A stretch of DNA of 64,000 nucleotides from an uncultured Chloroflexia bacterium (GCA_963765765.1 CAVXYC010000027.1:1-64000), one strand, 5' to 3'. Positions 37,156-56,657 are shown, counted from the first letter of the stretch. Made by a program: numbers and translations. Notes: generated from the letters alone by a model not told the origin.

Positions 37156-37341
37156 GGGGCGTCCTCTATTATTGATTGATGAACTTATAGATTTTAAGCA
37201 GTAATCGCACGATTCTACGGAGCGACTGCCATACGGTCAAGTCGTAGACAAGGAATGCTGTAGGTCGTCAGCGAACCAATTGCGCCTGGGCGGCTCCACG
37301 CTCAGCAAGTAAAGTTAACTGACGACCATTCAGGAGGAAGC

Positions 37342-38655: not shown

Positions 38656-38674
38656 GCTAGTACGGCGTCGCTGA

Positions 38675-38728
38675 CTCAAATAAAGAGAGGTGGAGGGACG
38701 AGAGCCCTCCACCTCTCTTTATTTTGAG
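38675..38728. terminator. Bidirectional terminator
   Basis: AAATAAAGAGAGGTGGAGGG / CCCTCCACCTCTCTTTATTT stem between convergent genes. Confidence 0.85.
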
Positions 38729-38852
38729 TGTCGCCACAACCATAGTCGCGGGTCGTTTCAAGGGGCGATCCGTAGAGCGGGACTCCGTGCCCGCGAGTCC
38801 ATCAAATGCTTTGCCCAGCATGCGTAAGCGGTATGTCCAGACACCGACCGCT

Positions 38853-40046: not shown

Positions 40047-40246
40047 TGCTCTTGCTCCTCGCCGGCGGCAATCGGAGTAGGGAGGCGCCGGCCATGACGG
40101 GTGACGCTCCCCGGCGTCACGCTTCCCTGCGGAGATGATGTTTAGCATACGCGGCGAGGTCGCGGTCGCACGAGAGGTTACTGCATAAGGAAGCGGCCAG
40201 TCCTACTAGAGTCCACGCCTTTGGCCATTGCTAACCAGCCGCGGAT

Positions 40247-40330
40247 TGTCATCCTGAGCGCAGCGAAGGGCTTACACCGACGGTTTCCCGGAATGCGTTG
40301 GGGAAGATCCTCGCTACGCTCAGGATGGCA
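40247..40330. repeat. REP-like inverted repeat (TGTCATCCTGA family)
   Basis: TGTCATCCTGAGCGCAGCGAAGG ... AGATCCTCGCTACGCTCAGGATGGCA; related to 51924-52052. Confidence 0.75.
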
Positions 40331-40403
40331 GGAACGGAGCAAGCATGGAGTAGCGGGCATGAGCGAGTCCGTTCAATCATCCCGACTACCCACACCATCG
40401 GGA

Positions 40404-40489
40404 GTGGCGCCCCTTACAGGCGCTACCTAGAGACCGCAATTGCGTTTGCCTGCAGTGAGTCTCAGGTGGCGCCCGTAAAGAGACGCCAC
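40404..40489. repeat. Second REP-like inverted pair
   Basis: GTGGCGCCCCTTACAGGCGCTACCTAGAGAC and an imperfect inverted copy GTCTCAGGTGGCGCCCGTAAAGAGACGCCAC; each arm is itself a hairpin. Confidence 0.55.
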
Positions 40490-40584
40490 GACGCGCGACC
40501 TCCAAGTCTAGTACGACAGCGCCAACACAAAGAGAGCCCGAATCGAGGTCATCGACTCGGGTTCTCGCGTAGACTCGGAGACAG

Positions 40585-41850
40585 CTAGTTGAGCAGCGCC
40601 TTCGCCAGCTCCTGAGTTTTGATTCCCGCGTCCAGAAGCGACTCGTCGTCGGAGCGGAGATACTTCACGCCCTTCTGGGGCCGCACACTCTCGTCGAATG
40701 CCGGTACGTCCAGGCGCCGGCTGTTGACGTTAGCGTTCTTGGAGTAGATCGTGCTGCCTTCCTTCGTCAGCAGCCAGTTCGCAAACACCTGAGCCGCCTT
40801 TGGATGCGGCGCCTTGGCCACAATCCAGATATTGTTACTGGCGGCGTTCGTGTATTCGATCTCAGGAACCGGGTTCACCTTGATATTGTTGCCAAGGCCT
40901 TGTGCCTGGAAATCAGCCAGAATCCGTTTGTCCACGGCACCAACGCCGATGGAGTAGCGACCGCGCACCATGAACTCGGTGAGCTGCCGTGCGTCATTGC
41001 TGACCACGATCTCCTGATCAACCCACAGCTTCTTCACGATATCGTCGCTACCCGTTACAACGCGCATCATGGTGGTTGGAGTGAAGCCTGAGCCCTTGGT
41101 ACGGGGATCGCCACCGACCATTTTCCCGCGCCATTTTGGATCCAGCAGGTGCTCCAGCTTGGTGATCTCGCCTTCTTTTACCTGATCGGTATTGATCCAG
41201 ACCTGGCTCTCGATATCGCGACCAACGGAGTATTGCCACTGCTTGCCGATGTCGTTGAAACCGCCTTCAAATCCGTCAACCCAGACGCTGTCGTCCAGAA
41301 CTTCAGGAAGCACAAGTAGTGGTCGAACTGGCACCGCGCCGCTCACCGGCACGGCTTGGCGAAGCATCTCCTGCGTGGTCATCATGGCCACGTCCCAGGT
41401 GTAGAGCCCCGCTTTGTGCTCCTGGAGCAGGCGCGGCAGATAGTCACGTGATGATGACTGGAACTGCGAGTGCTCCACCTTGATGCCAGGGAAAGCCTTT
41501 TCAAATTCATCGACGATCACACGGTAGCCCGTGCCCGCATATGTCGCTAATGTGAGCGCACCCTCAGCCTTTGCACCGGCCACGAGCGCATCCCAATCCG
41601 CCTTGCTTATACCCGCCGCTGATGCGACAGGTGAGGCGGCTGGACTTGCCGCGGGCGATGCCGCAGCAGCGGGAGAGCTAGCGGCGGCAGGTGAGGCAGC
41701 AGGCTTCGCGTCGGCTGGCTTTGCAGGCGCTGCCGTCGGTGAGGCGGGGGCCGGAGACGAACATGCCGCGGCGAGCGCCGCCGCGCTCCCGAGACCCAGT
41801 AGGCGCAGTACGCTGCGCCGATTCATTGTTCTCGCAACTTCAGTTGACAC
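40585..41850 (-). CDS. ABC substrate-binding Tat lipoprotein (AfuA/TbpA-like class)
   Basis: NRRSVL..LAAAC signal, PAAS repeats, DPRTKGSG, APHPKAAQVFANWLLTKEG. Confidence 0.9.
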   Translation of the reverse strand: MSTEVARTMNRRSVLRLLGLGSAAALAAACSSPAPASPTAAPAKPADAKPAASPAAASSPAAAASPAASPAASPVASAAGISKADWDALVAGAKAEGALTLATYAGTGYRVIVDEFEKAFPGIKVEHSQFQSSSRDYLPRLLQEHKAGLYTWDVAMMTTQEMLRQAVPVSGAVPVRPLLVLPEVLDDSVWVDGFEGGFNDIGKQWQYSVGRDIESQVWINTDQVKEGEITKLEHLLDPKWRGKMVGGDPRTKGSGFTPTTMMRVVTGSDDIVKKLWVDQEIVVSNDARQLTEFMVRGRYSIGVGAVDKRILADFQAQGLGNNIKVNPVPEIEYTNAASNNIWIVAKAPHPKAAQVFANWLLTKEGSTIYSKNANVNSRRLDVPAFDESVRPQKGVKYLRSDDESLLDAGIKTQELAKALLN

Positions 41851-42171
41851 GCGTACACCAACCTCCCACGACACAAAAATGCCCCGGCTACAGCACGCTG
41901 GCCCGGGGGCATGACCAATCGACTTGAGACAATCTACTGTTAAATGGTCCTAAGTCGCAACGGCTAGTTCAATGTGGGCGTAACTGAAACTTGAGACCCT
42001 AATACCAGAACCGCTGATTCCTGTAAGGCCACTGCGGCACGCTCTGAGAATATTCTTTCACGGACGGTGCTGATTTAGCGGCCTGTCACTTTCAGGCTAA
42101 AACGCGGGGAATTTTCAGTGCTCGGCGGGGTTCGGGCCGCACCGACGGCAGGCTGCGACCGGATCGCGAGT

Positions 42172-42425
42172 CTAGTCGTCAACCAGGCGGTCCAGCAAGT
42201 CGGCTGCCAGACTGAGGAGCTGGCGCTCGGTCGGGGTGAGCGCTTGGGCCATCGCTTCGGCCAGCCATGTATCGCGGTGGCGCATGTCGTCGGAGAGTAC
42301 CCGACTCCGCTCACGCGTAATGGTGATGATGGCACGACGTCGATCGGCCGGATCCTGCGTGCGGTAGATCAACTCCTGCCCCTCGAGCTCAGCGAGCACG
42401 CGGGTCAATGTCTGCGGCTGTGACT
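42172..42425 (-). pseudogene. 3' half of a MarR-family regulator
   Basis: QPQTLTRVLAELEGQELIYRTQDPADRR..LTPTERQLL. N-terminus missing. Confidence 0.75.
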
Positions 42426-42427
42426 CC

Positions 42428-42490
42428 TCCGGCCACGGCCAGGCCGCCCCGCAGGAAATCGCGCCGGGGAGTGGACTGGAACGAGGTCAC
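42428..42490 (-). pseudogene. Tat-signal stub of a further COG2984-type lipoprotein
   Basis: GTG overlapping the upstream TGA reads VTSFQSTPRRDFLRGGLAVAG and then joins the MarR fragment. Confidence 0.6.
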
Positions 42491-43491
42491 TGGATCAGCT
42501 CGGTCGCCTCGGCCAGGATCGACTGAGGGATCGTCAGACCCAGCACCTGGGCGGTCGTGAGGTTGATCACCAGATCAAATTTCTCCGGCCGCTCCACCGG
42601 TAGCTCCGCTGGATTGGCGCCCTTCAGAATCTTGTCCACATAGATCGCAGCGCGTCGCTCCTGGGCGGGGCGATTTGCCCCGTAGGCGATCAGTCCGCCG
42701 GCCGCCACAAATTGAGGAGTTGACATCATCGGCAACCGATGCGCACGCGCCAGTCCGCCGACACGCGCCACGTTGCTATTCAGCACGAGATTGTCCAGCA
42801 GGGTGAGCGCATCCACTCGCTCCTGCACCGCACGCTCGAACGCGCCCTCGATGTCGGCGGGCTCACGCACCTCCAGCGGCACCAGCGTCAGCCCCAGGCG
42901 GCCAGCCGCGGTTTCCGCTATCTGCAGCTCGCCGGCCTGGTTGTCAGGGTGCCAGATAACACCCACGCGTGACACCGACGGAAGTGTCGTTCGCAGGACT
43001 TCCAACCGCTTCCCAATCAGCTCGCGGGCGATGCTGGTCTGTCCGGTGACGTTTCCTCCTGGCCGCGCAAGACTGGCCACAAAACCGTCCTCCATCGGCA
43101 TGCCGGTCTGTGCCATCACGATGGGGATGGTGCTGGTGGCACGCATCGACTCCCGGATAGGGCCGGCCCCGGAGGCCACCAGCACGTCGACGGGCATGCC
43201 CACGAGCGCGGCGGCCAGCTCGGGGAGGCGATCGACCTGCCCATCGGCGGGTCGCCGCCACTCCACGGTGATCGTGCTGCCCTCGACGTAACCCAGCTCT
43301 GCCAGGCCCTCCCGAAAGGCGTCGGCCCATTCCTGTCCGCCAGCCCACAGGTAGCCGATACGAGGTGTCCGAACCGCCTGCTGCGACCGTGGCGATAACA
43401 GCCCGCAGCCGGCCAGCAGACCCAGGCCGGCCGCCGACAGGCCACCCCCGAGGAAGCGGCGACGCGTCCTGGAGTGTCCGAGTCGCGTCAT
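42487..43491 (-). CDS. COG2984/ABC_sub_bind-type substrate-binding Tat lipoprotein (copy A, intact)
   Basis: TRRRFL..LLAGC, RIGYL, TSTIPIV, VASLARPGGNVTG, YVDKILKGANPAELPVERPEKFDLVINL, ATELIQ. Confidence 0.93.
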   Translation of the reverse strand: MTRLGHSRTRRRFLGGGLSAAGLGLLAGCGLLSPRSQQAVRTPRIGYLWAGGQEWADAFREGLAELGYVEGSTITVEWRRPADGQVDRLPELAAALVGMPVDVLVASGAGPIRESMRATSTIPIVMAQTGMPMEDGFVASLARPGGNVTGQTSIARELIGKRLEVLRTTLPSVSRVGVIWHPDNQAGELQIAETAAGRLGLTLVPLEVREPADIEGAFERAVQERVDALTLLDNLVLNSNVARVGGLARAHRLPMMSTPQFVAAGGLIAYGANRPAQERRAAIYVDKILKGANPAELPVERPEKFDLVINLTTAQVLGLTIPQSILAEATELIQ

Positions 43492-43786
43492 TTGGCGCTA
43501 GTGTACGCCCGCGGGACTAACGGCGCTATGGATTGGTCTTCTGCGAAGAAGGCACCAGCAACGCCGATGGCCGATTGCACACTGCTGATGGAAGGCAGCG
43601 TATGCAGAAGCTACTGGGCAAATCGCAGAGTTGACAGCCAGACCGACCGCTGCCACACTGGCACGCAACGTCGACTGACGGCGCATCTGCCAGGAGCACG
43701 ATGCCAGGGTTGACTCAGCCATTCGTCCGTAAACATCAACCGCTGCGCGCGAAGCCCCATGGATGCTTCAAGAAAGGATCGTCGAA

Positions 43787-44979
43787 ATGAGATGCAAGCC
43801 CTCGTCTCTACTGCCGCCTCTCGGCGCCGCTATCCTTCTCCTGGCTGCCTGTGCGCCCCCCGCCGCGCCGGCCCCAAAGGCGCCGGCGGTGGCGCCAACC
43901 AGTCCGGCCAAGTCTGAGGCCGCGCCCGCGAAGCCCACGAGCGCTCCGGCTCAGCCGAAGAGTGAGCCGACCCCCGAGCAGCCCGTAGCGACGAACTCCT
44001 CGCGCGCGCTCGCCGATGCGAAGGGAAAGTACTACGAGGCGGCTAAGCAGGAGGGAAAGCTGGTGGTGTACGGGACCACCCTGTCGCCGGCGCTCTTTGA
44101 CCCGGTAAAGGAAGCCTTCAACAATCTCTTTCCCGGCATCGACATCCGAGCAGAGGAGCAGACCGGAAATATCAGCCGCGAGAAGATCATCGCCGAGCAG
44201 CTCGCCAAGAGCTACGTTGTGGATATCGCATTCACCGGGTTCTCCACCACGCGCGACCTGATCGACGCCGGCCTCGTGGTGCCCTACGAGTCGCCGCAGG
44301 CGTCGGCCCTCATTCCCGAGTTCGTGCTGCCCGGCGGCCTGGTCAACCCGCGAAACGCCAGCCTGCTTAGCGTCACCGTCAACACCAACCTGGTACCACC
44401 AGACCAGGAGCCGAAGGTATGGAACGACATCCTCGACCCTAAGTGGAAGGGGAAGCTGGCCACCCAGGACCCGCGCCAGCCGGGCGGGGGTGGTCAAATC
44501 ATCTCCGGCTTGGCCCTGGTCTACGGCTTTGAGTTCCTGCAGCAGCTCAAGACGCAGGAGGTTTTCTTCGGACGGGGCCGGGGCCGCTGTGGAACGGCCT
44601 GATCCGCGGCGAGTACGCCATGTTCCTCTCTGCGAACCATGCGGACGCCGTGTCGCATCGCAAGAGCGGAGCCCCCATAAAGTTCCTGAAGATGCAGGAC
44701 GGCGTGTCGTGGACCTACAACAGCATGCTGAACATTGCAAACCAGCCGCACCCCAACGCCGCGCGGCTGTTCATAGAGTGGGTGCTATCCGAGGAGGGTC
44801 AGCTCGTAATGTCGACCCAGGGATTCGGCGCGGTTCGTAAAGGCGTCCGGGCGGTCGAGCCGGAGGCCAGTATGGACGGCGTGACGTTCCTGCCCCGAGA
44901 CAACACTGCAGAGGCGGACGCGATACTCGGCAACGACCAGGAGCGCTCCGTGCGCTGGGACACTCTCTTCTTCAAGTAG
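43787..44979 (+). CDS. ABC substrate-binding lipoprotein (AfuA/TbpA-like class), frameshifted near 44575
   Basis: LLAAC lipobox, PAK linker, WNDILDPKWKGK, PHPNAARLFIEWVLSEEGQ. Confidence 0.85.
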
Positions 44980-45149
44980 CGCATTTGGCTCGTTGCGGAG
45001 TGGATGCGACCGGTTCGTGGTGCGCCATTCTAAAAAGTCGAAATAGCGTCACGAGAAATAGAGCGGTGCACCTATCGGCACGAACGTCATCATGGTGGTC
45101 AAGCCGATGACGGACGCAAGCGCGCCGCACAGCGCCGGGCCCGATAGAC

Positions 45150-45290
45150 TGTCCGCAGGTAGCCGATAGAAGGTGTCCGAACCGCCTGCTGCGACCGTGG
45201 CGATACCAGCCCGCAGCCGGCCAGCAAGCCAGCCGCCGCCAGACTGCCTCGCAGGAAATCGCGCCTGCGTACGTCGCGGAGCTCAGTCAT
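45150..45290 (-). pseudogene. 5' fragment of a COG2984-type lipoprotein
   Basis: RRRDFLRGSLAAAGLLAGCGLVSPRSQQAVRTPSIGYL, nearly identical to the copy A N-terminus, then unrelated sequence. Confidence 0.8.
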
Positions 45291-45360
45291 TGTGCTAAGC
45301 CTGCTTGCCTTCCTCCCGAGCAGCACGCGTGGGACCGAGATCGCTCCTTGAGCTCCCTAT

Positions 45361-45804
45361 CTAGCGTGCTTCGGCGCCCACGCCGGCTGGCTGGACATCA
45401 CTCGCTATCGAGGCGTAACTGCGGATCTCGACCTGGTTGTTATCGGGATCACGGAATTTGATCGAGATGGCCTCACCACGGGCTCCCCAGTTTCGGTGCG
45501 GGTCTGACTCGAGGGCGATCCCGTGTTTCTTGAGTTCCGCCACGCATGAGTCCATGTCATCATCCGTAGAGAGACAGAAGTGGTTCACATTGGGCGAGCC
45601 ACTCGGCGGCGCCTGACCGTCTTTGACCCTGGCAAGATCGATAATGGTGGTCTCATTCAGGCGGACCGAGGGAAATCCGTTCTTCCCGGCGCGCCACGAC
45701 TCCACCCGCTCAGGGGACAGTCCGAGCACCTCGGTGTAGAACTTGAGTGAGCGCTCGACATCTCGAACGTTAAGGACTAGGTGGTCCATACCGGTTAGGC
45801 GCAT
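45361..45804 (-). CDS. VOC/glyoxalase family protein
   Basis: MDHLVLNVRDVERSLKFY..LGL, NHFCL, FRDPDNNQVEI. GGAGGAG RBS. Confidence 0.92.
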   Translation of the reverse strand: MRLTGMDHLVLNVRDVERSLKFYTEVLGLSPERVESWRAGKNGFPSVRLNETTIIDLARVKDGQAPPSGSPNVNHFCLSTDDDMDSCVAELKKHGIALESDPHRNWGARGEAISIKFRDPDNNQVEIRSYASIASDVQPAGVGAEAR

Positions 45805-45971
45805 TGGACACTCCTCCCGTGAGAATCGCGTCACCATTGTAGCGGCCGGCGGCTGGACAGGCGTTGCCCCTAGCATCATAGATTCTCACCGGAGCGATCC
45901 CAAGCGCGGGAAGCCCGTCTCGCCCACCATCAGTCAATCCGGCTACCCAGACGACGCTTGTTCCCTGTGTT

Positions 45972-45999
45972 TGTTCCGATAACGCCCACTATCGGAAGG
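45972..45999 (+). other. dif/Xer-like recombination site 1 (putative)
   Basis: TGTTCCGATAA-CGCCCA-CTATCGGAAGG (11-6-11). Confidence 0.6.
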
Positions 46000-46160
46000 G
46001 GCACAAACAAGGGAGACGTGAGGAACTTCCCGACGTAGTCCAAGAGCGAGCAGCATCGCGAGGATGATCGGGATGCCGGAGAACTCAAAGAACTTAGGGT
46101 GCTGACGAGTTCCGATACGTTCCGGCAATCATGGGGGCGTCCGGCGCGTTCCGCGCCTAT

Positions 46161-47151
46161 CTACTGGATGACCTCGGTCGCCTGGGCCAGGACCGACTGC
46201 GGGATGGTCAGCCCAAGCCCCTGTGCGGTCTTGAGGTTGATCACGAAGTCGAACGTCGTGGGCTGCTCGACGGGCATATCGGCCGGGTTGGCGCCCTTGA
46301 GGATCCTGTCCACGTAGGCAGCGGCGCGTCGGTAGATCTCGGCGAAGTTCGGCCCGTAGGTCGCGAGCCCGCCCACATCGGTGAACTCGCGATGTTCGTA
46401 GAGCGCGGGCAGCCGATGCTGCGCCGCCAGTTCGACGACCCGAGTAGGGTAACTGAGGGCGGGGCTGCCCGATGGCACCAGCAGCGCGTCGGCGCCCCAG
46501 TCGACCGCCGCCGCGAAGGCGCCGGCGAAATCGTCGGCCGTCCGCGCCGGCAGCAGCCGCACCTGCTGCCCCAGGACCTGGGCCGCCGCCTCGAAGTTCG
46601 CCAGCCGCGGCCCTGTCGCTGGAGTGTCGGGGTTGGCCAGGATGGCGACGCGGGAGGCCGTGGGGACCACCCCCTTCAGCCGCTCCATCCGCTTCATGTC
46701 GGTGCTATCGCCGAGGGTGCTCAAACCGGTGACGTTCCCGCCCGGCCGCGCGAGACTGGCGACCAGGCCGCTCCCGACCGGGTCGGGGACCGCGACGGCA
46801 ACCATGGGGATGGTGCTGGTGGCCTGCTTGGCGGCAAGGCTCGATTGGCCGCCTATCGTCACGAGGACATCGGGCCGCAGGTCGACCAGCTCGCTCGCCA
46901 GCCCGGGAAGACGCTCGTTCTGGCCCTCGGAGAAGCGGTACTCGATGTGGATGTTCTGCCCTGGCTCGTAGCCGTGCTCGCGCAGCCCACGGAGGAAGTC
47001 CTCGCGGATGACGGCGGCCAGGAAGCCGATTCGCGGCATCCTGGCCGTCCCCGTGACTCGGCGCCGACACGACCCCGCAGCCGGCGAGCAGGCCGAGGCC
47101 GGTGAGGCCGAGGCCAGCGCGCAGGAAGTCGCGACGACTCCACGGGTCCAT
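46161..47151 (-). CDS. COG2984-type Tat lipoprotein (copy B), frameshift near 47060
   Basis: MDPWSRRDFLR..LLAGC in one frame; RIGFL..SLARPGGNVTG..YVDRILKGANPADMPVEQP..ATEVIQ in another. Confidence 0.88.
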
Positions 47152-47291
47152 GGCAGCCAGTATAGACCTGGCCCGCTTAGCCGACAATCGAACCATTCAC
47201 CCACCGCGGTCGGCGATCGGCCAGACAACGGAGCCAATCCAGAGAAGGATCTCTCACGCCCCTCCCGGCGCACGCTCCGCGTTTTGAAAGA

Positions 47292-47320
47292 GGGTCCGAT
47301 AACCCCCCATTATCGGCCCG
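47292..47320 (+). other. dif/Xer-like recombination site 2 (putative)
   Basis: GGGTCCGATAA-CCCCCCA-TTATCGGCCCG; the 7-bp spacer may be a homopolymer miscall. Confidence 0.6.
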
Positions 47321-47376
47321 TCCCTGCCTAGGGTCTCAGCGCAAAGAGGGGAGATTGATCCGAGCGAGCTCACTCG

Positions 47377-48403
47377 CTACTGGATCAGCTCGGTGGCCCG
47401 GAGCAGGACCGACTGGGGGACGGTGATCCCGAGCTCTCGGGCCATCCTGGAGATTCACCACGACCGGAAGCGTGGTCGGCAGCTCGATCGGCAGGTCGCC
47501 CGGTCTAGCGCCTTTGAGGATCCGGTCGACGTAATAGGCCGCCCGCCGGGCGAGCCCGGGCGAGTCAATGCCGTGTGCCAGCAGGCCGCCGTTGGCGGCG
47601 AAGAGCCGATTCTCCGCCACAGCCGGCAGCCCGGACTTCAACACCGCGCCGCCGATGCGGGGATCGGTCCCCCCACCGATGACGCCGCCCGGACAGCACG
47701 ACAGAGACCGCTCCGCCCCCCCGCCCTGGCCGTCGACGAGCACCGCCGAGAAGCTGGTCGAGGTGGGGCATCTCATACCAGCGCGAGCTGGAAGCCCCAG
47801 AGGATTGGGCGGCGCGCTCCACCTCTCGAGTTGCCCCTGCTGGGCGGTCGGGTTCCCGGCCCGATCCTCGCACTGCCGCCAGGCGGGAGATGCGTGGGCA
47901 CGGTCTCATGGAGCAGCTCGACCCACTTGCCGAGCGTTTCACCGGCGTTCGTCGCCACGCCGGTGATGTTGCCCTCGGGGCGGGCCATGTTTTTCACCGA
48001 GCCCGTTTCCTACGACGTTCGTACCGGCGGTCACGATCGGAATGGTCGAGGTCGCCCGGCTGGCGGCGACGGACCGCGGGGCTGCCCGCTGACGACGATG
48101 ACCTCGACCGGCAGAGCCGACCAGCTCGGCCGCCAGGGCCGGAAGGCGCTCGAAGTCCAGTTCGGCGTCGCGGCGCTCGATCAGGACGTGCTGGCCCTCG
48201 ACGTAGCCGAGGTCCGCGGAGCCCCTCGTGGAACGCATCGAAGTAGACCTCTGGGGGTTAGCGCCGGAGGTCCAGGTAACCGATGCGGCGCGGGCGCCGG
48301 CGCCCGGCCCTGCGATGGGAGCACCCCGCAGCCGGCGCAGCAGGCCGAGGCTGGTCAGGCCCAGGCTGGCACGCAGGAAGTCTCGACGATTCCACGGGTC
48401 CAT
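47377..48403 (-). pseudogene. COG2984-type Tat lipoprotein (copy C), multiple frameshifts
   Basis: MDPWNRRDFLR, LGYVEGQ, TSTIPIV, ARPEGNITG, YVDRILKGARPGDLPIELP, ATELIQ across several frames. Confidence 0.82.
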
Positions 48404-48542
48404 GACAGCCAGTATAGACCTGGCGGCCTTAGCCCACAATCGAACCATTCACCATATCCCCAGCCGCCGATGCATGCCCCTCGAGCAGCGGGCTGAGGAC
48501 CTCTACCGGTGCGACCCCACCGTATTTGCAGGGCGCTTCCGG

Positions 48543-48705
48543 GTCGACCGGACCGCCGCGTCGTTCGACGCCTTCGTGTACCTGGCCGTGATCGTCATCT
48601 GCATCCGGAGAGCCATGCGTGCCCAAGCATCGGGCATCGAGGATGATTGTTTACCGCCAAGGCCTAGCGCGCACGGTCAGGCCCCGGATAGTTTGAAACA
48701 GGGTC
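48543..48705 (+). mobile_element. Possible IS5-family remnant (transposase C-terminus plus right end)
   Basis: DRTAASFDAFVYLAVIVICIRR resembles IS5-family transposase tails; followed by the terminal-IR-like TTTGAAACAGGGTC. Confidence 0.5.
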
Positions 48706-48728
48706 CGATAACCCCCATTGTCAGAACC
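48701..48728 (+). other. dif/Xer-like recombination site 3 (putative)
   Basis: GGGTCCGATAA-CCCCCA-TTGTCAGAACC (11-6-11). Confidence 0.6.
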
Positions 48729-48924
48729 AGAGGGCCGCGAGCCTGACTACAGAGAGTCACAGTGTTTTGGTTCCAGATAGCCGCCGCGCCTTACACCCGC
48801 CAAAGGAAGGAATCCTGGAGACGGCACGTATATTGGCGAAGTGCACGCGCTGTGGTCGGTCAAACGCGCGCGAGCCCGGGAACCTCTAGCGCCGTCAGCT
48901 TCACGGGCGTACACTAGCGCCATC

Positions 48925-49949
48925 ATGACGCCACTCGGACCATCGAGCACCCGTCGCCGCTTCCTGAGGGGTGGCCTGTCCATGGCCGGCCTCGGTCTGC
49001 TGGCCGGCTGCGGGCTGCTCCCTCCCCAGGCCCCAACGTCCGAGCGGGTGCGCCTGATCGGGGTCCTCGGCGACGCGCCTGGCGGGCGTTGGGACGCGTT
49101 CTTGGATGGACTGCGGGAGCTGGGCTGGGTCGAGGGCCGGAACCTCGCCGTGGAGTCCCGCTGGGCCGAGGGAGACTCCCAACGGTACCGGGCGCTCGCG
49201 ACCGAGCTCGTCGAGCGGAAGGTCGAGCTGATTGTAGTGGGGACGTCGGAGGCCAGCCTCGCCGCCAAGCAGGCGACCGCCACCGTCCCGCTCGTGGCGA
49301 TCCTGGTCAGCGGGGAGGCAATCGAGATCGGGCTCGTCGACAACATCGCGCGGCCCGGCGGGAACATCACTGGGACGGCCGGCATAAGCGGGCCGCAACT
49401 GGTAGGCAAGCAGCTTCAACTCTTGAAGGAAGCGGTCCCGCACGCCTCCCGTGTAGCCGTGCTCCGCCCAGGCAGCGCAGAGGACCTTCGGCTTCGGATG
49501 CGCGCGCGTGCGGGCGCTCCAGGAGGCCGCGCCCGGCCTCGGGGTACACCTTCACGTGGTCGCCATGCCGAACATCAGCGGCCTCGACGACGCGTTCGCG
49601 GCCATGTCCACAGCCGGCGCTGATGCCGTCAAGATTCTCCGCAACCCAGTTCGACTCTGCGTGGGGACGCATCGCCGAGTTAGCGCTCCAGTATCGGCTG
49701 CCGTCGATCGCGGAATATCCGGAGTTCGCTCGGGCGGGAGGCTTGCTGTCCTATGGCTCGAGTCGAGCCGAGGTCTACCGGAGTGCAGCACCGTACGTGG
49801 ACAAAATCCTGCGAGGCGCCCGCCCTGGCGACCTGCCGATGGAGCGGCCCACGGACTTCGACTTCGTGATCAATCTCGGAACAGCGCAGGCCCTGGGGCT
49901 GACCATCCCGCAGTCCATCCTGCCGCAGGCCACCGAAGTCATCCAGTAG
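48925..49949 (+). CDS. COG2984-type Tat lipoprotein (copy D), frameshifts near 49505 and 49640
   Basis: TRRRFLRGG..LLAGC, LGWVEGRN, IARPGGNITG, YVDKILRGARPGDLPMERP, ATEVIQ. Confidence 0.85.
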
Positions 49950-50149
49950 CAGACCGGCGAGCACCCCGGCCGATGGTTCCTTCGAAGCAAGTTCCGGTAA
50001 CCGCATCATCCGCCCTAGTACACGGATGACGGGTGAGGTCGCTCGGAGCGAAGTCCTACGTAGCGCCCGATCGGCCTGCGCGCTATGCTGGGTATTCGTC
50101 GCGGGCTGTGCAGCCGGTGAGCCCGCCCAAGCTCTGAACGGGAGGACCT

Positions 50150-51180
50150 GTGCTGCAGGCCAACATGATGCGCCAGCGGTTTGCACCGACTCGTCGCGCC
50201 TTCCTGCGGGGCGGCCTGGCTGTGGCGGGCCTGGGCCTGCTCTCGGGGTGCGCGGCGGCATCGCCGATCGGCCCGCAGCGTCAGGCGCGGCTACCCCGTA
50301 TCGGCTACCTGTGGAGCGGCGAACAGGAATGGGCCGACGGCTTTCGGGAGGGCCTGGCGGACCTGGGCTACGTTGAGGGCAGGACTATCATCGTCGAGTG
50401 GCGACCCGCCGATGGGCAGGTCGAACGCTCCCCGGGCTGGCCGCCGAGCTGGTGGGCCTGCCCGTCGACGTGCTCGTGGCCTCCGGGGCCAGCCCATCCG
50501 GGCCGCGATGCGCGCCACCAGCACCATCCCGATCGTGATGGCATGAGACGAACGACCCGGTGGACGGAGGGCTTTGTGGCCAGCCTGGCACGGCCGGGAG
50601 GCAACGTCACCGGGCAGACCAGCATCTCCCGCGAGCTGATCTGGGAAGCGGTTGGAAGTTCTGCGAACGGCACTCCCGTCCGTGTCGCGGGTAGGCGTGA
50701 TCTGGAACCCTGATCTCGCCGACCAGGCCGGCGAGGTGCTGGAGGTGGAGGCCGCGGCCGGCCCCCTGGGGCTGGAGCTGTGCCGCTGGAGGTGCGTGAT
50801 TCCGCCGACCTCGAGGGCGCGTTCGAGCGAGCGGTGCATGAGCGGGTGGATGCGCTGTCCCTGGTGGACAATCTCGTGCTGGCGAGCAATGTGGCGCGGG
50901 TCGGCGGGCTGGCGCTCACGCACCGGTTGCCGATGAGCTCGGCCGCTCCGCGATATGGTGGCGGCCGGCGGACTGATCGCCTACGGCGCAAATCGCCCCG
51001 CCCTGTAGCGCCGCGCGGCCAGCTACGTGGACAGGATTCTGAAGGGCGCCAATCCCGCGGAGATGCCAGTGGAGCGGCCGGACGAAATTTGACCTGGTGA
51101 TCAACCTCGGAACGCGCAGGCGCTGGGCTCTGACGATTCCGCCGTCGGTCCTGGCCCAGGCAACCGAGATCATCCAGTAG
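50150..51180 (+). pseudogene. COG2984-type Tat lipoprotein (copy E), several frameshifts and an in-frame TAG at 51006-51008
   Basis: Close paralogue of copy A (RIGYLWSGEQEWADGFREGLA, SLARPGGNVTGQTSISREL), ending ATEIIQ. Confidence 0.82.
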
Positions 51181-51245
51181 GTACTTGGCCCCATCAGCGC
51201 CCAAGCGCCCAGTACGGGGTGGGAGCGAGCTATCCGGACATCACT

Positions 51246-51272
51246 CGTTCCGATAATCCCCATTGCGGAACG
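51246..51272 (+). other. dif/Xer-like recombination site 4 (putative)
   Basis: CGTTCCGATAA-TCCCCA-TTGCGGAACG. Confidence 0.55.
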
Positions 51273-51450
51273 AAGGTTTCAGGCCCTCTGCTCCACGACT
51301 AAATAACGCTTACTGTCAACCCCGCGGCTAATATCATCGCGCACGCTCCGAGAACATGAGTCTCGGTGTATCGTGGGAGAAGGCGAGACGACCGGCCAAT
51401 CGCGTGGTCTGGCCTTTCACTTTGGCACCAACCTGGACGCAGATGAGCAT

Positions 51451-51876
51451 ATGACCCAGACCGACCCCGCGTGGGAAACCTTCTTTCGCAACTATGGCGC
51501 CGATGCTCTGGGAGCCGCGCCAGAGCGGATTGCCGCCTTCTATGCCGAGAGTTTCATCGCCGCTGGGCCTCGAGGCAGCGCGGTTTTCAGGAATGACGAA
51601 CAGTTTATCGATTGGCTGATGCAGTTGCATCAGTTCAACGAGAGCATCGGCATGACCGCGATGATGGTCGTGTCCATCAATGACTCAAAACCGTTGAGCG
51701 GCCGGCACCAGCTCGTAACGGTTGAATGGGGGGCGCGTTTCGAGAAGACAGGTGAACGACTCGTCACCTTTCAGATCAGCTACCTTCTCGAGCGCTCAGG
51801 CGAAGCCTGGAAGATCATCGCGTACATCTCAGAGAAGGATCAGGAAGAAGAGATGCAGGCGCTGGGATTACTCTGA
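51451..51876 (+). CDS. NTF2/SnoaL-like hypothetical protein
   Basis: IAAFYAESFIAAGP, VTVEWGARF, SYLL..WKIIAYIS. Confidence 0.7.
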   Translation: MTQTDPAWETFFRNYGADALGAAPERIAAFYAESFIAAGPRGSAVFRNDEQFIDWLMQLHQFNESIGMTAMMVVSINDSKPLSGRHQLVTVEWGARFEKTGERLVTFQISYLLERSGEAWKIIAYISEKDQEEEMQALGLL

Positions 51877-51923
51877 CGAAGCAGCGACCAGTCCCGGATT
51901 ATTCACCGGCAACCCTCGGCCGC

Positions 51924-52052
51924 CCTGTCATCCTGACGAAGGAAGGATCTGAACGGACATTGGCAACCATCCGACTGAGAGCGCAGCACCGTGTTTCCAA
52001 CGGCGCCGTCCGTCGATGTCCGTTCAGATCCTTCCTTCGTCAGGATGACAGG
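51924..52052. repeat. REP/MITE-like element with a perfect 37-bp inverted repeat
   Basis: CCTGTCATCCTGACGAAGGAAGGATCTGAACGGACAT at 51924-51960 and its exact reverse complement at 52016-52052. Confidence 0.85.
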
Positions 52053-52116
52053 CACTCTGATGCGTAGGGCAGTAACCGGTGGTCGAGCCACATCGCGATT
52101 CAGCATCAGAAACAAG

Positions 52117-52144
52117 AAGCCCGGAGCTCGCTCGCTCCGGGCTT
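52117..52144 (-). terminator. Intrinsic terminator
   Basis: AAGCCCGGAGC / GCTCCGGGCTT stem downstream of amidohydrolase copy 2. Confidence 0.65.
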
Positions 52145-52176
52145 TCGTCCGTAGGGACGCTGAAAGTCCTGAGACG

Positions 52177-53265
52177 TCAGGCAGCAGCGCCCACCGGGGT
52201 CAGTTGGTAGAACCGCTCCGCGTTCCCCGCCAGGATCTTCCCTTTCGCTTCCTCGCCCATCTCCTCGTTCTCCAGCAGCTCCTCGATCTCGTGCCGACAC
52301 ATCTGCGCCGTCACTTCGTGCGGGAAGTCCGTGCTGAACAGGAACGCTTCCGCTCCCACCACCCGCGTCGCTTCCGCGATCGCCGGCTCTTCCCCTTCGC
52401 ACCCCACGTACAGCCGCCCTTCGGCGATCTGCCGCTTCATGTACGCGCTCACTCGCTCGCCCTCGCGCAGACGGAAGTGCTCATTGCGCGGGTCGTGCGC
52501 CAGGTGCGTCTCCCAGCTCCGATCGAACCGCTCCAGGCACACCAGGAACCACGCGACGCCACCTTCCAGGTACGCGTAGCGGGCATTCGGAAAGTGGTCG
52601 AAGATCCCGTTGAACAGCATCGCTCCCAGTCCCACCATCTGGCCGAACGGGTGCCCCAGCCCGTGGACCGGCCCGTACACGTTGAAGTGGTCCATCCCGA
52701 AGCCGCTGTGCGCGCCGCCGTGCACCGCCAGCGCGCAGCCCAGCCGATCGGCCACCTCGTACACCGGCCAGTACTCCTTGGCCCCCAGGTGGTTGGGCAG
52801 CCCGGTGCTCGGTAACATGGCTCCCCGCATGCCCAGCTCGGTCACCGCCCGCTCCAGCTCCTCCGCCGCCGCTCGCGGCTCCTGCATCGGAATCAGCGCC
52901 ATGCCGCCAAATCGAGGATCCACCTTCAGATAGGCATCATGGAGCCAGTCGTTGTATGCGCGGCAGGCCACAGCCGCCCACTCATAATCCACCATCTTGC
53001 CGTGCGCCAGGCCGCGCGTCGGATAGAGCACGGTGCTCTCGATGTTGATCTCGGTCAGGAACTCGAGCCACTCGGCAGCGCGGATGAACTTGCCGTTGCC
53101 CGAGGCGCCCGGCAGCATGACGAGCTGCTGGCTATGGAGGTGGTCGAGCGGCGGAAAGTGCCGGTCGGCGTTGTAGTTCCAACGATCCTTCCAGATGTCC
53201 GGAACGAACTTGGAGATCGCCTGCATGTCCTCCATGATGTGGCCATCTGCATCGATGATGCGCAT
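52177..53265 (-). CDS. Amidohydrolase_2 family protein (copy 2)
   Basis: IIDADGHI, FSTDFPHE; C-terminal two-thirds almost identical to copy 1. Confidence 0.92.
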   Translation of the reverse strand: MRIIDADGHIMEDMQAISKFVPDIWKDRWNYNADRHFPPLDHLHSQQLVMLPGASGNGKFIRAAEWLEFLTEINIESTVLYPTRGLAHGKMVDYEWAAVACRAYNDWLHDAYLKVDPRFGGMALIPMQEPRAAAEELERAVTELGMRGAMLPSTGLPNHLGAKEYWPVYEVADRLGCALAVHGGAHSGFGMDHFNVYGPVHGLGHPFGQMVGLGAMLFNGIFDHFPNARYAYLEGGVAWFLVCLERFDRSWETHLAHDPRNEHFRLREGERVSAYMKRQIAEGRLYVGCEGEEPAIAEATRVVGAEAFLFSTDFPHEVTAQMCRHEIEELLENEEMGEEAKGKILAGNAERFYQLTPVGAAA

Positions 53266-53275
53266 GATCCCCTCC

Positions 53276-54374
53276 TTACGCCGGAACCGCGGCAGGGCTC
53301 AGGTTGTAGAAGCGCTGCGCATTTCGGTAGAGCACCGCGTCCTTGGCGTCATCCGAGATGTCCTCGGTCTCCATCAGCTCCTCGATCTCGTGGCGGCACA
53401 TCTCGACGGTGACCTCATGTGGATAGTCGGTGGAGAACACGAACGGCTCCGCGCCGACTTCTCTGATGGCGTACGCGAGCTCGGGCTCTTCGCCTTCGCA
53501 GCCAACGAAGATACGCCCTTCTTTGATATTGCGCTTGATGTACGGCTGACGCTCTCACCGTCGCGCAGGCGAATGAGCTCACCGCTCAGATCATAGTGCT
53601 TGTGCGTCTCGTACGAGCGATCGAAACGCTCAAGGCACATCAGCAGCCACGCAACGCCAGCCTCGAGAAAGCCGAATTTCAGCGTTCGGGAAGTTGTCGC
53701 AGACACCGTTGAAAATCATGTTGCCAAAGGACACCATCTGGCCCAATTGGATGGCCCAGCGCATGCACGGGCGCATAGACGTTGAAATGGTCCATGCCGA
53801 AGCCTTCATGCGCGCCGCCGTGGACGGCCACGCCGCAGCCCAGGCGATCCGCCACCTTGTACACGGGCCAGTATGTCTTCGCGCCAAGCGGGCTCGGGAG
53901 ACCCGTGGACGCGAGCATCGTTCCCGACATAGCCCAGCTCGGTCACCGATCGCTCAAGCTCTTCAGCCGCGGCGGCAGGCTCCTGCATGGGCAGCAGGGC
54001 CATGCCCTTGAATCGCGAGTCGCGCTGAACATACGTCTCGGAAAGCCAGTTGTTGTAGGCCCGGCAGACGGCATTCGCCCAATCGTAGTCAACCATCTTG
54101 CCCACTGAGAGGCCGCGGGTTGGATAGAGAACGGCCGACTCCAGCCCGATCTCGTCCATGAAATTGATCCACTCATCGGGCCTACATGCTTGCCGCCCGC
54201 AAAGGCTCCTGGCAACAGTCGGTCCTGGAAGTTGTGGAGATGGTCGAGTGGCGGGAACATCGCTTCCGCGTTGAATCTCCAGTTCGCCAGGTAATAGTCA
54301 GGGATGTGCTTGGCGATAGCAGGCATATCTTCGAAGATATGCCCATCGCCGTCGATGACGCGCGGAGCGGTCAT
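53276..54374 (-). pseudogene. Amidohydrolase_2 family protein (copy 3), multiple frameshifts
   Basis: VIDGDGHI, RAYNNW, AVHGGAH, LEAGVAW, NAQRFYNL in shifting frames. Confidence 0.85.
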
Positions 54375-54844
54375 GGGCGAGCCTCCTCGGTTCGATCAGC
54401 GGTCGCTGCAGTGCGCCGCCCAACTACCGAGGATTCTACATGGCACCCAGTTAACTGGTAGCGAGGCTGGCACTTGGGCGGCTCTGTGCGGACGGAGGTT
54501 GCGAGCCTCTCACCATGGCTCTGCGCCAGGAGTTCAGCCCCCTCCCCAGCTGCATCTGCTTCGCGTCGACTTCTGGCCGAGCACATCCAAATCCACCGGA
54601 TATGGTCGTTCCCCTTGCCCTCGGCGGACAGTGGTACAGCAAGGGCTGCCGAGCGCCGCGTGGTCTAACTCTTGCCTCGCGCGGAAATTTGCGCCTACGT
54701 CATTGTTTAGGCAGGGATGCGATCACACTCGAGTCAGGGAGGCAGATGCAAAGACACGAGTAGCAGAGACCGCGGGCATGCAAAACCCGCCCCGTGAATC
54801 GGTAGCTTAGATTTCGGTGATTCAGTAGTTAGAAAGGTGTGCAA

Positions 54845-54970
54845 GTGTCGGCGCGCTATTTCGCTTTAATTGCGGGCATAGTCTATGTACTCGTCGGACT
54901 CCTGGGCTTCGTGCCCGGGGCAAATCAGGCACCGCCGCCTGACGCGCCCCCTGGGAAGGGGCTGGGGTGA
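54845..54970 (+). pseudogene. Truncated N-terminus of a DUF4383-like membrane protein
   Basis: AGAAAGG RBS; MSARYFALIAGIVYVLVGLLGFVPGANQAPPPDAP, then runs into a REP-like repeat and stops. Confidence 0.55.
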
Positions 54971-55028
54971 GGGAACTGCGCCATCGCAACGTCGCACCCT
55001 CACCCCAACCCCGCCCAGGGGGCGAGGG
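54946..55028. repeat. REP-like inverted pair (CCCTCACCCC family)
   Basis: CCCCCTGGGAAGGGGCTGGGGTGAGGG ... CCCTCACCCCAACCCCGCCCAGGGGG. Confidence 0.7.
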
Positions 55029-55049
55029 CAGCCCGCTGAACCGATTCGC

Positions 55050-55673
55050 CAGCGAGCGAAGCTCCCTGACGATCTGCTCGGTGGTGCGGACGCGGCCAAA
55101 TCCGGGGAACACGCGGTCCATAAAGAAGTCATTGACACCTGGCCTGCCGGAGCTACAGGCATCGCGAACAAAGATCTGGTTGAAGTCTCTATCGCGCGCT
55201 GAGTAAGCGGTGCTGGCGATTCCGACCTCAGTGGAGCCTCCACACAGATGATGGTGTCGATCCCGGCGGTCCTCAGACTGAGCTCAAGGTGCGTTCGTGG
55301 AACGTACTCCAGCGATGCTTTTTGATGACGTAGTCTTCGTGGCGCGGATCAAGCTCGTCGATAACCTCGATTTCCCACTCACCCGAATGTGCGGCAGTGC
55401 CAATGGTCTTCGGGCACCCCCCTCTGGATCCGGTTGTCGCGATCTACGATGAGCGAAGCGAAGTCCCGCCCGTCGGGACGGTGATCGGCCTGTGCATAGA
55501 AGACCGATCAGGCCGGCCGCGCGACTTGCATCGAGCAGCTGCTGCATCCGGCCGACGATCCCGGACGGATCCACAGCCGCCTTGGCCTCAGGATTCTTCG
55601 GGTGCAGGTACACGTTTAAGGTATCGAAGAACAGTATCGCCGTCTTAGACGGCTCAATGGGAAACTCGGCCAT
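55050..55673 (-). CDS. Isochorismatase-family cysteine hydrolase, frameshifted; 3' end approximate
   Basis: KTAILFFDTLN, IKKHRWSTF, GIDTII, FMDRVFP..GRVRT across frames. Confidence 0.75.
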
Positions 55674-55692
55674 TGGCACCTCCTGCCTTGAG

Positions 55693-55805
55693 GAATTAGG
55701 AATTAAGAATGCTGAATTAAGAATGAGCCGGTCGAAGCGGGTCATTCAGACGTAAGAATCGGCTACGTCGACGGGGGTCATTCTTCATTCTCAATTCTTC
55801 AATTC
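55693..55805. repeat. Inverted arrays of short AT-rich heptamer-like repeats (GAATTAA/AAGAATG)
   Basis: GAATTAGGAATTAAGAATGCTGAATTAAGAATGA ... TCATTCTTCATTCTCAATTCTTCAATTC. Confidence 0.6.
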
Positions 55806-55831
55806 GCCATTTGTCCGTCGACCGCTCGATT

Positions 55832-56657
55832 TTACGCCGCCCCGACTCGCTCCAGGATCGTCTCAGCCATCAACCTCGCCCGAATCGTGTACAGCCGCCA
55901 AAGGTCGGGATCGTGCGGCTTGGGGTCACCGAAGTATCCGAGCGGCGTGACGCGTCGCGCGTGCTCGCCGCCCTTTCGCCAGGCCACAAGATCATCCATG
56001 CCGAGCTCAGTTGGCTCCAGCTTATCCAACGCATCGTAGTTGACGATCTCCGGGAACCAACGCGTCATCATCGCCGTTTCGACCTCGTGCGCATGGACGC
56101 CCAGCTTGCCGCTCATGACGAGACCGGTGTCCTCAGGCATCAAAAAGGTCAGCCAGTAAGGATCCGTTCCGGTCCGCTCCGTGGCGCTTGGCGGTGGGCT
56201 CGTCTTCCACCCAGGCGATGCCATTGTTGCCCTTCGCATGCTGCGCCTGCATGACCTCGATCTGCACTTTCGCATGCCCCGCGTCACCCTGATGATTGAC
56301 GATGAAGACGTTCTGGAAGCCGTCCTCGATCAGCGTGTCAAAGATATCCGTGAGCAGCATGACAGCGGTTTCATGGCGCGTTCGAAAGGTTGCCGGGAAA
56401 CCCTCGGTGACCTTATTGATGCCCCAATAGAATGGCGGCGCAATGAGCGCCTCCCGACCCAGGCGACTCATCTCTCGTCGTGTCAGCTTGGCCAGTAGAT
56501 AGCTACCGTATGTATCCACTCCGATAGGTAAATGCGGCCCGTGCTGCTCGACCACGCCGCTGGGTAGGAGCACGACCGCGCCCCGCGTGGCAGCCTTCAC
56601 TACCTCGGGATAGGTCATGTCGACCATGGTTTCTTCAAAGATCGAGTAACCAGTCAT
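55832..56657 (-). CDS. Creatininase family protein, frameshifted near 56195
   Basis: LLPSGVVEQHGPHLPIGVD, VNHQGD, GVHAHEVET, GYFGDP. Confidence 0.88.

Follow-up and report, generated by a model that had tools for sequence, protein, structure and literature searches.

Co-oriented dif-like sites between gene modules of an uncultured Chloroflexia bacterium, probable core sites of an XerA-like recombinase

Between positions 45,972 and 51,272 of a 64,000-nt stretch of DNA from an uncultured Chloroflexia bacterium (GCA_963765765.1 CAVXYC010000027.1:1-64000; hereafter the window), substrate-binding-protein genes of the COG2984/PF04392 family alternate with short sites that resemble the dif sites of Xer recombinases, and an earlier reading of the window (the original prediction) had taken them for a recombinase-driven gene-cassette system. 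The window is taken from contig C27 of an assembly of 6.49 Mb in 33 contigs (G000; 61% G+C, completeness 91.8%, contamination 6.9%). Four sites were read where the original prediction had placed them, all on the + strand, built on an 11-6-11-type plan and with every spacer ending in CCCA. Site 1 (45972-45999; TGTTCCGATAA-CGCCCA-CTATCGGAAGG; 11-6-11; nhmmer E=3e-4) is the left border of module B and has a glyoxalase-family gene as its left flank; site 2 (47292-47320; GGGTCCGATAA-CCCCCCA-TTATCGGCCCG; E=4e-5) has a 7-nt spacer, with left flank family LFb on one side and right flank family RFa on the other; site 3 (48701-48728; GGGTCCGATAA-CCCCCA-TTGTCAGAACC) gives E=6.5e-6; and site 5 (51246-51272; CGTTCCGATAA-TCCCCA-TTGCGGAACG; E=6.5e-4), whose right arm is one base short, closes the array on the right and has left flank family LFc. 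The degenerate copy that had been noted near 49990 (49990-50012, + strand; AGTTCCGGTAA-CCGCA-TCATCCG) falls below the nhmmer threshold, and we accept it as a decayed site because its left flank is, by eye, visibly homologous to that of the site at C1:3096. Two weaker candidates from the same prediction, at 42040-42067 and 51297-51323, gave no nhmmer match at E<10 and look unrelated. Allowing up to two mismatches, the 14-mer core was counted four times in the window where 0.43 would be expected, and none of 100 shuffles reached four.

Every interval between these sites holds one PF04392-type gene, as had been claimed, checked by Pfam for A and B and by tblastn for B to E. Module B (46161-47151, - strand) carries a PF04392 substrate-binding-protein gene (1.3e-46) with a promoter-like site of its own at 47159-47187 (TTGTCG-17-TATACT); by eye, its Tat-type start (MDPWSRRDFLR) lies in another frame than the long open frame. 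The genes of the other modules are PF04392-like: module C (47377-48403, - strand; tblastn 47380-48402) is frameshifted and reads in two frames, module D (48926-49949, + strand; tblastn 48925-49946) also in two, and module E (50150-51180, + strand; tblastn) in three. Gene A (42487-43491, - strand), an intact PF04392 gene by Pfam, lies outside the site-bounded array with no adjoining site, and module E is an inverted, decayed copy of it, 83-91% alike in pieces. The conserved left flank of the array is formed by the glyoxalase-family gene (45361-45879, - strand; PF00903, 6.7e-17). As the original prediction had stated, no tyrosine recombinase is encoded in the window, nor is there one anywhere on contig C27.

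We built a site profile from 24 good copies and searched the G000 genome with nhmmer, which returned 67 hits at E<10, 47 at E<1 (the second strand of one palindromic hit having been dropped) and 29 at E<=0.01; a shuffled genome gave 4, 0 and 0, respectively, so that the motif, for which the original prediction had proposed a genome-wide scan, is not a random one. Two of the 47 hits (on C5 and C11) match only half of the site, where a coding frame ends, and were removed, leaving the 45 sites used below for the comparison of flanks, while the 29 hits at E<=0.01 are referred to as strong sites. A left-arm look-alike on C4, C5 and C11, which is a coding-frame end in a three-copy duplication, was also set aside. 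At these places (C4:24553, C5:26185 and C11:72894) lie three near-identical copies of a two-gene stretch, in which a small gene comes after one whose product ends in ...GHPLFR; these stretches may represent a large duplication or, at a contamination of 6.9%, strain variants binned together.

The consensus of the family is CGTTCCGATAA-CCCCCA-TTATCGGAACG, an 11-6-11 arrangement with inner ATAA/TTAT. Among the strong sites the spacer is 6 nt long in 23, 7 nt in three and 5 nt in three, and it reads CCCCCA in 14 of the 29. Positions 2-11 of the left arm match the consensus in 24-29 of the 29 sites, and positions 6 and 8-11 of the right arm in only 19-24. When the two arms were compared pair by pair, 65 cells departed from the consensus pair, of which 51 were broken, 9 still paired after a one-sided change and 5 were compensated. 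Since changes in the arms mostly break pairing, and since the left arm and the centre are the best conserved parts, it is the sequence rather than a stem that is kept. The asymmetric centre is conserved even at solitary sites, and it is therefore not a target duplication.

Outside G000 the family is rare. We compared a panel of 41 relatives and a sample of 401 genomes from the phylum; the tallies over the relatives include one unpublished genome (G006) on which no claim is based. With up to two mismatches allowed, a 22-mer of the site is present 18 times in G000; of 40 relatives, two have one copy each and 38 have none. When 185,579 species were scanned with an 18-mer, only 15 single matches, all in unrelated taxa, came to light, which we judge to be about the number expected by chance for a collection of that size, and the 18-mer has no match in viral contigs.

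Defining a cluster as sites less than 12 kb apart, we found 37 sites in 11 clusters, each of them uniform in orientation. Spacing within clusters is mostly 0.65-1.4 kb, and some intervals span 2-9 kb. Neighbourhoods of 300 bp around PF04392-like loci account for 1.1% of the genome, yet 17 of the strong sites fall in them, and 20 of the 46 PF04392-like loci in G000 have a site; where genes of this family stand in tight tandem arrays, on C1, C6 and C17, there is none. The original prediction had tied the system to COG2984 genes, and here it went too far, as 12 of the 29 strong sites have no COG2984/PF04392-like gene within 300 bp. Other site intervals hold an AurF-like gene, a DUF2703 gene and a sigma-70 fragment, cytochrome bd subunit I, phosphofructokinase, or methyltransferases. 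One further site-bounded module (C7:37153-41624) has the appearance of an arsenic-resistance cluster, as it contains a pair of LMWP (ArsC-like) genes together with a MIP channel and a YnfA-like gene. PF04392 genes that flank sites are oriented with the site in 10 cases and against it in 8, as read from the map. No clear polarity emerged, in that the site strand and the local GC skew had opposite signs in 10 clusters and the same sign in 6.

The flanks of the sites provide evidence that the sites are borders. We aligned 120 nt to the left and 120 nt to the right of the 45 sites, all against all (990 pairs), and found flanks that were alike on the left only in 43 pairs, on the right only in 42 and on both sides in 3, one of which consists of two sites 22 nt apart; thus 85 of 88 likenesses are one-sided. 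Non-coding flanks can show 84-92% identity as far as the site and be unrelated beyond it. Window site 2 (C27:47292) exemplifies this, sharing its left flank with the sites at C1:191315 and C23:453582 and its right flank with those at C1:192543 and C23:452363. Variants of the outer left arm track the family of the left flank and variants of the outer right arm that of the right flank, which places the switch point in the middle of the site.

Related metagenome contigs point in the same direction. A 19-mer scan retrieved four contigs, two of which (L036 and L037) look like chance matches. The third, L035 (2431 nt), is 92.6% identical over 215 nt (C27:45650-45864) to the glyoxalase-gene flank and 83% identical to C27:45873-45997, and it has a perfect consensus site at the place homologous to site 1. 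After this site it continues with a gene of about 0.9 kb without counterpart in G000, judged by eye from the translated reading frame to be GNAT-like, then with several half-sites, and its end is 91.7% identical to C27:88419-89285, a sequence that in G000 lies about 215 bp to the right of the site at 88177. In G000 the sites at 45972 and 88177 are 42 kb apart; as L035 joins their flanks, both ends of the difference fall at or close to sites, as the original prediction had anticipated for synteny breakpoints. The fourth contig, L038, carries a site with the composite element described below, following 2.2 kb of DNA without match in G000. Other comparisons were less informative. The same-genus genome G001 is only about 80% identical to G000 and in 650 contigs, a divergence too large for placing breakpoints, and at the position of the array it has one contig with a 926-aa frame between the two flanking genes. 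From the sequencing runs X1, X2, X3 and X5, searched with 38001-56000 at 88% likeness, only short contigs (151-894 nt) matched; their joints fall inside paralogous genes rather than at sites, and none is informative on excision or empty sites.

At eight places in G000, and in L038, the core site is part of a larger composite element: it is followed by a spacer of 35-45 nt, a second inverted repeat (GGTTCCAGATAA-N13/14-GGTTATCGGAACC; in summary form GGTTCCAKATAAT-N13-GGTTATCGGAACC), about 20 nt and then TTGAC(A). The composite stands at the right end of arrays at C1:191315, C7:253, C7:45094 and C27:88177. In the window a partial copy follows site 3, where a lone left arm of the second inverted repeat (GGTTCCAGATA; 48769-48779, + strand) is present and its partner arm is missing.

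The search for an enzyme yielded 21 tyrosine-recombinase hits in G000, three of them Xer-like, and no serine recombinase. One of the three Xer-like genes, a single-copy XerA-like gene at C30:93976-94864, begins some 220 nt past the site C30:95109, where a small array of binding-protein genes ends, and the region upstream of it contains a degenerate second inverted repeat around TTGACA. Its family is patchily distributed, being found in five of the 401 genomes of the phylum sample (G000, G001, G029, G064 and, in three copies, G088). Three gene copies from two distant genomes, the one of G064 and two of G088 (G088a and G088b), are directly preceded by a composite element with the same arms and with centres of its own (CGATGC in G064; CGCCGC and CCCCGC in G088). 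In all, a core site lies upstream of four of the six assessable gene copies; the two copies without one are those of G001 and G029, and the third G088 copy, which begins at a contig end, is not among the six. G088 contains five sites with centres CSSCGC, two of which, as direct repeats, bound a 6.4-kb accessory module that encodes a DUF7380/DUF4209 protein, a helix-turn-helix protein and unknowns. Sites with up to two mismatches occur in four of the five genomes with the gene as opposed to 15 of the 396 without it, and 11 of these 15 represent the single-copy site of one genus.

By profile the C30-type protein is assigned to the Xer family of tyrosine recombinases: PF00589 (Phage_integrase) scores 121.9 bits on it, and profile matches cover residues 16-292 of 295. 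Two intact 295-aa homologues score 209 and 202 bits on XerA_Arch, 209 and 223 on XerC, and 203 and 207 on XerD, all below the respective equivalog cut-offs (209.4 against 220 for XerA, 223 against 335.15 for XerC and 206.6 against 329.6 for XerD). The nearest solved structures are XerA (5hxy, 1.4e-37; 4a8e) and XerD (1a0p, 1.2e-28). Two remnants of phage-type integrases in or near clusters (C1:184026-185185 and C20:548503-549444) were considered and rejected, as they belong to a family of many scattered fragments and showed no link to the sites.

The site family, its distribution, the breaks in the flanks and the location of gene beside site can be read directly from the assemblies, and we consider it probable, with moderate confidence, that the 28-bp elements are the core sites of a simple Xer-family tyrosine recombinase that excises and inserts modules, with the XerA-like protein of C30 as the best candidate because of its gene-and-site neighbourhood in three lineages. 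In the mechanism that we propose, one kind of recombinase would bind both near-identical arms (GTTCCGATAA / TTATCGGAAC), and two co-oriented sites with the same asymmetric 6-bp centre (CCCCCA) would synapse. Strand exchange in the centre would excise the intervening DNA as a circle with one hybrid site, and the reverse reaction would insert the circle at any other site, always in the same orientation. The outcome would be arrays of modules with co-oriented sites between them, each module with its own promoter and 3' region. The composite element upstream of the recombinase gene would serve both as a primary site, comparable to attI, and as an operator for the gene. XerA acts alone on a palindromic dif, and the near-identical arms would likewise fit one protein acting alone, which makes the single recombinase of the original prediction probable. 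Its proposal of cassettes recombined by an Xer-type enzyme in trans thus gains from the flank breaks, the uniform orientation, L035 and the XerA-like gene encoded elsewhere in the genome; that enzyme is likely to be a dedicated and patchily distributed one rather than a housekeeping Xer.

Several observations weigh against this interpretation. No recombination product or event was seen in our analysis, and 28-bp repeats can also recombine without a dedicated enzyme. L035 may be a short-read misassembly at a repeat, although even a misjoined contig would leave a foreign gene with a site at one end and half-sites at the other. Only one of the 11 clusters in G000 adjoins the recombinase gene, the sites of G029 are not near its gene, and G001 has the gene with no site found in its 650-contig assembly. 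The association of gene and site across genomes is a pointer and not a test, the genomes being few and partly related. A spacer of 5 or 7 nt in 6 of the 29 strong sites also counts against it. Moreover, one extra G relative to G001 shifts the frame of the C30 gene, and a TAG lies in frame in the G001 copy; if these are not errors of assembly, the enzyme may no longer be functional in this genus. Lastly, 30 of the 46 PF04392-like loci read in more than one frame and the long frames elsewhere on C27 are intact, so that the arrays look either decaying or poorly assembled, and much of the array DNA has the appearance of decay. Binding and catalysis by the C30-type protein are what the interpretation predicts, and present-day activity in G000 is questionable, with a gene that looks broken and many cassettes that look decayed.

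The chromosomal dif of this genome bears on the alternative that fares best, in which housekeeping Xer enzymes act on the sites, as proposed for Acinetobacter dif/pdif (plasmid dif) modules, and the C30 recombinase is a bystander. G000 indeed encodes two other Xer-like genes, an XerD-like one at C29:40995-42029 (268 bits) and one at C10:276980-278098 that is conserved across the order, in 35 of the 41 relatives. About 50-120 nt upstream of the latter lies a 28-mer (C10:278147-278174; GGTAGATATAA-TTAGCA-TTATCGTAACC) that is identical to G001 in 28 of 28 bases amid poorly conserved intergenic DNA, has single-copy counterparts in nine of the 41 genomes (seven of them within 4 kb of the C10-type gene; no control hits) and lies near the skew turn of C10. 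We regard it as the candidate for the true chromosomal dif, a role that it fits better than the cassette sites do: the cassette family, with 47 hits in G000, is missing from 38 of 40 relatives and has no site at a skew maximum. C23:407799, which was also considered as dif, is not at a skew turn and was dropped. In the comparison with dif that the original prediction had called for, the two kinds of site differ. The centre TTAGCA and one arm (GGTAGATATAA) of the candidate dif are unlike those of the cassette sites; its other arm (GGTTACGATAA) matches the cassette left arm at 9 of 11 positions, a likeness that favours the housekeeping enzymes.

The same alternative draws on the genus mentioned above (g93), in which a single copy of GTTCCGAGAA-TGTATC-TTCTCGGAAC, with arms as in the cassette sites, is identical in 11 of 11 genomes (for example G299 C1:1593461-1593486). 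These genomes have two ordinary Xer-like genes far from the site and no C30-type gene. The adjacent 20-kb bins show positive skew to the left and negative skew to the right in three of three genomes, the signal in 60-kb bins being weak, and this site may be the dif of that genus, in which case the arms of the cassette sites would be a natural Xer-binding sequence in this phylum. Set against this, relatives with both housekeeping genes lack the site family, and the family recurs directly upstream of the C30-type gene in three copies from two distant genomes. We therefore hold the use of the sites by housekeeping enzymes to be unlikely.

Slightly more unlikely, in our view, is that the sites are a selfish or neutral intergenic repeat, similar to repetitive extragenic palindromes (REPs) or miniature inverted-repeat transposable elements (MITEs), with the borders arising from general host recombination at short repeats. 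The sites are short, palindromic, intergenic and present in tens of copies, the 22-mer and 18-mer counts given above show them to be species-specific, and in form each cassette has inverted arms at its ends with an identical set of 6 bases on either side. However, arm pairing is not maintained, the orientation is uniform in 11 of 11 clusters, the asymmetric centre kept at solitary sites speaks against a target duplication, and the arms recur beside the recombinase gene in other lineages, each time with another centre. The Y1 transposase that accompanies REPs in the REP/RAYT (REP-associated tyrosine transposase) system is not a neighbour here, the three Y1_Tnp hits in G000 (C20:197.9 kb, C18:113.6 kb and C23:350.6 kb) having no site nearby, and uniform clusters and flank breakpoints further set the present sites apart from that system.

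We give little credence to the possibility that the arms are operators of a dimeric transcription factor for the adjacent genes, the module borders being secondary. Such a role would suit the palindromic arms and the position of the second inverted repeat about 20 nt before the TTGAC(A) box in eight G000 copies, and in G064 and G088 the left arm of that repeat contains TATAAT. Against it, sites stand 13 to 65 nt past stop codons as often as upstream of genes, and where they are upstream the distance ranges from 58 to about 300 nt. The arms also occur at two spacings (6 nt and about 14 nt), and neither a conserved asymmetric centre nor flank breakpoints would be expected of operators. That the palindrome is an RNA hairpin, whether terminator or stability element, is barely credible, for although folding of the consensus into an 11-bp stem and a 6-nt loop is conceivable and many copies lie past stop codons, there is no T tract, the terminator scan does not list the sites, an Rfam scan of the window at gathering thresholds matched no family, broken arm pairs outnumber compensated ones by 51 to 5, and the strand of the site is independent of that of the genes.

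The closest described counterpart is found in the dif/pdif module islands of Acinetobacter, where rows of 28-bp sites that are not the main dif, each with a 6-bp centre between 11-bp arms, bound modules of accessory genes on the chromosome; there, orientation alternates between C/D and D/C, and different arms serve XerC and XerD (PMC12907356). Rows of 28-bp arm-centre-arm sites that bound modules of one to a few genes and are separate from dif are common to both. The systems differ in that the sites within each cluster are direct repeats here rather than alternating, in that the arms are near-identical rather than different, and in that a rare Xer-family gene adjoins the site family here, whereas no dedicated recombinase takes part in Acinetobacter. 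The host is moreover an uncultured soil bacterium of another phylum. Among the papers listed by full-text searches we found no report of Xer-site modules with a dedicated recombinase outside Acinetobacter.

Likenesses to integrons lie in the general logic, as both have cassette arrays with recombination sites and a tyrosine recombinase related to Xer. A more complex primary site by the gene may be a further parallel. The binding-protein array on C30 ends at the site before the gene, and the composite precedes the gene in G064, G088a and G088b; attI carries several IntI-binding sites. The cassette sites themselves are of another kind. Integron attC sites are folded structures of 57-141 nt that are recombined as single strands, whereas the sites described here are 28-bp duplex-type sites without maintained arm pairing. 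In addition, cassettes here have their own promoters (gene B has a promoter-like site) and lie in either direction (10 and 8 cases), and some modules hold several genes. On the integron-integrase model TIGR02249 the homologues of the C30-type protein reach 124.4 and 110.3 bits against a cut-off of 265, and on NF011946 72 to 74 against 435.

The single-recombinase systems XerA/archaeal dif, XerH/difH and XerS/difSL share with the present one a near-palindromic 11-6-11 site and a gene by the site (gene and site are neighbours in the XerS and XerH systems), and the recombinase is closest to XerA by both profile and structure. Their sites, however, are single-copy and resolve dimers, while there are about 45 copies at module borders here, the protein scores below every Xer equivalog cut-off, and in G000 the candidate dif is a different site, accompanied by another, conserved Xer-like gene. 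Integrative mobile elements exploiting Xer (IMEX) integrate at the host dif and use the host XerCD; they resemble the present case in that DNA enters or leaves the chromosome through dif-like sites, and they differ from it in that the sites here are not dif, are many and are linked to a separate recombinase.

A broader proposal, which we advance tentatively and with more doubt than confidence, is that these components make up a gene-capture platform of new design, consisting of an XerA-like enzyme, a four-arm primary site upstream of its own gene, simple 28-bp duplex cassette sites and cassettes with their own promoters. Such a platform would have spread horizontally and patchily within one phylum, would comprise about 45 sites in this genome and would carry binding-protein genes together with stress-related ones (arsenate-reductase-like, cytochrome bd); it would resemble integrons in function and have been built independently from an Xer/dif pair. 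Integrons are the only well-understood cassette platform, and nearly all documented cases of site-bounded modules moved by Xer come from Acinetobacter, in which the way they move is a matter of debate. If the proposal is true, a second platform of independent origin would mean that cassette capture evolved more than once, and its duplex 28-bp sites, dedicated XerA-like enzyme and environmental host would offer a simpler model for study. The amplification and reshuffling of large families of orphan binding-protein genes in soil bacteria would find an explanation as well. With the site model and the recombinase family, such arrays can be sought directly in metagenomes.

That the host lives in soil is suggested by the labels of 12 soil or rhizosphere sequencing runs in which parts of the stretch are present, all shares of words being small (the best 0.27). 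Judging by where sites lie within assemblies, such arrays seem to interrupt short-read assembly, and counts from fragmented genomes would be too low: two G000 clusters start within about 3.1 kb of a contig start (C7:253 and, at about 3.1 kb, C1:3096), and sites lie within about 1.5 kb of contig ends at C7:253 and, in other genomes, at G007 C92:92887, G002 C12:714 and G025 C134:1459.

The surroundings of the window array contain further repeated and broken sequences. Paralogous amidohydrolase (PF04909) genes at 36052-37236 and 52177-53298 bracket the array region, and both are matched by G001 contigs. Between a small gene (51373-51876) and the second of these lies a perfect 37-nt inverted repeat (51924-52052) with 55 nt between its arms, which is unrelated to the site family. 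Another broken gene of the same 10-kb region, at 43763-44979, encodes a binding protein of SBP_bac_1/SBP_bac_6 type and is split into two frames of 279 and 119 aa. Lastly, a 74-nt fragment from the 5' end of gene A (43345-43418) is repeated 1.8 kb away, within 45156-45290, at 95% identity, and is a remnant of a further copy of a binding-protein gene.

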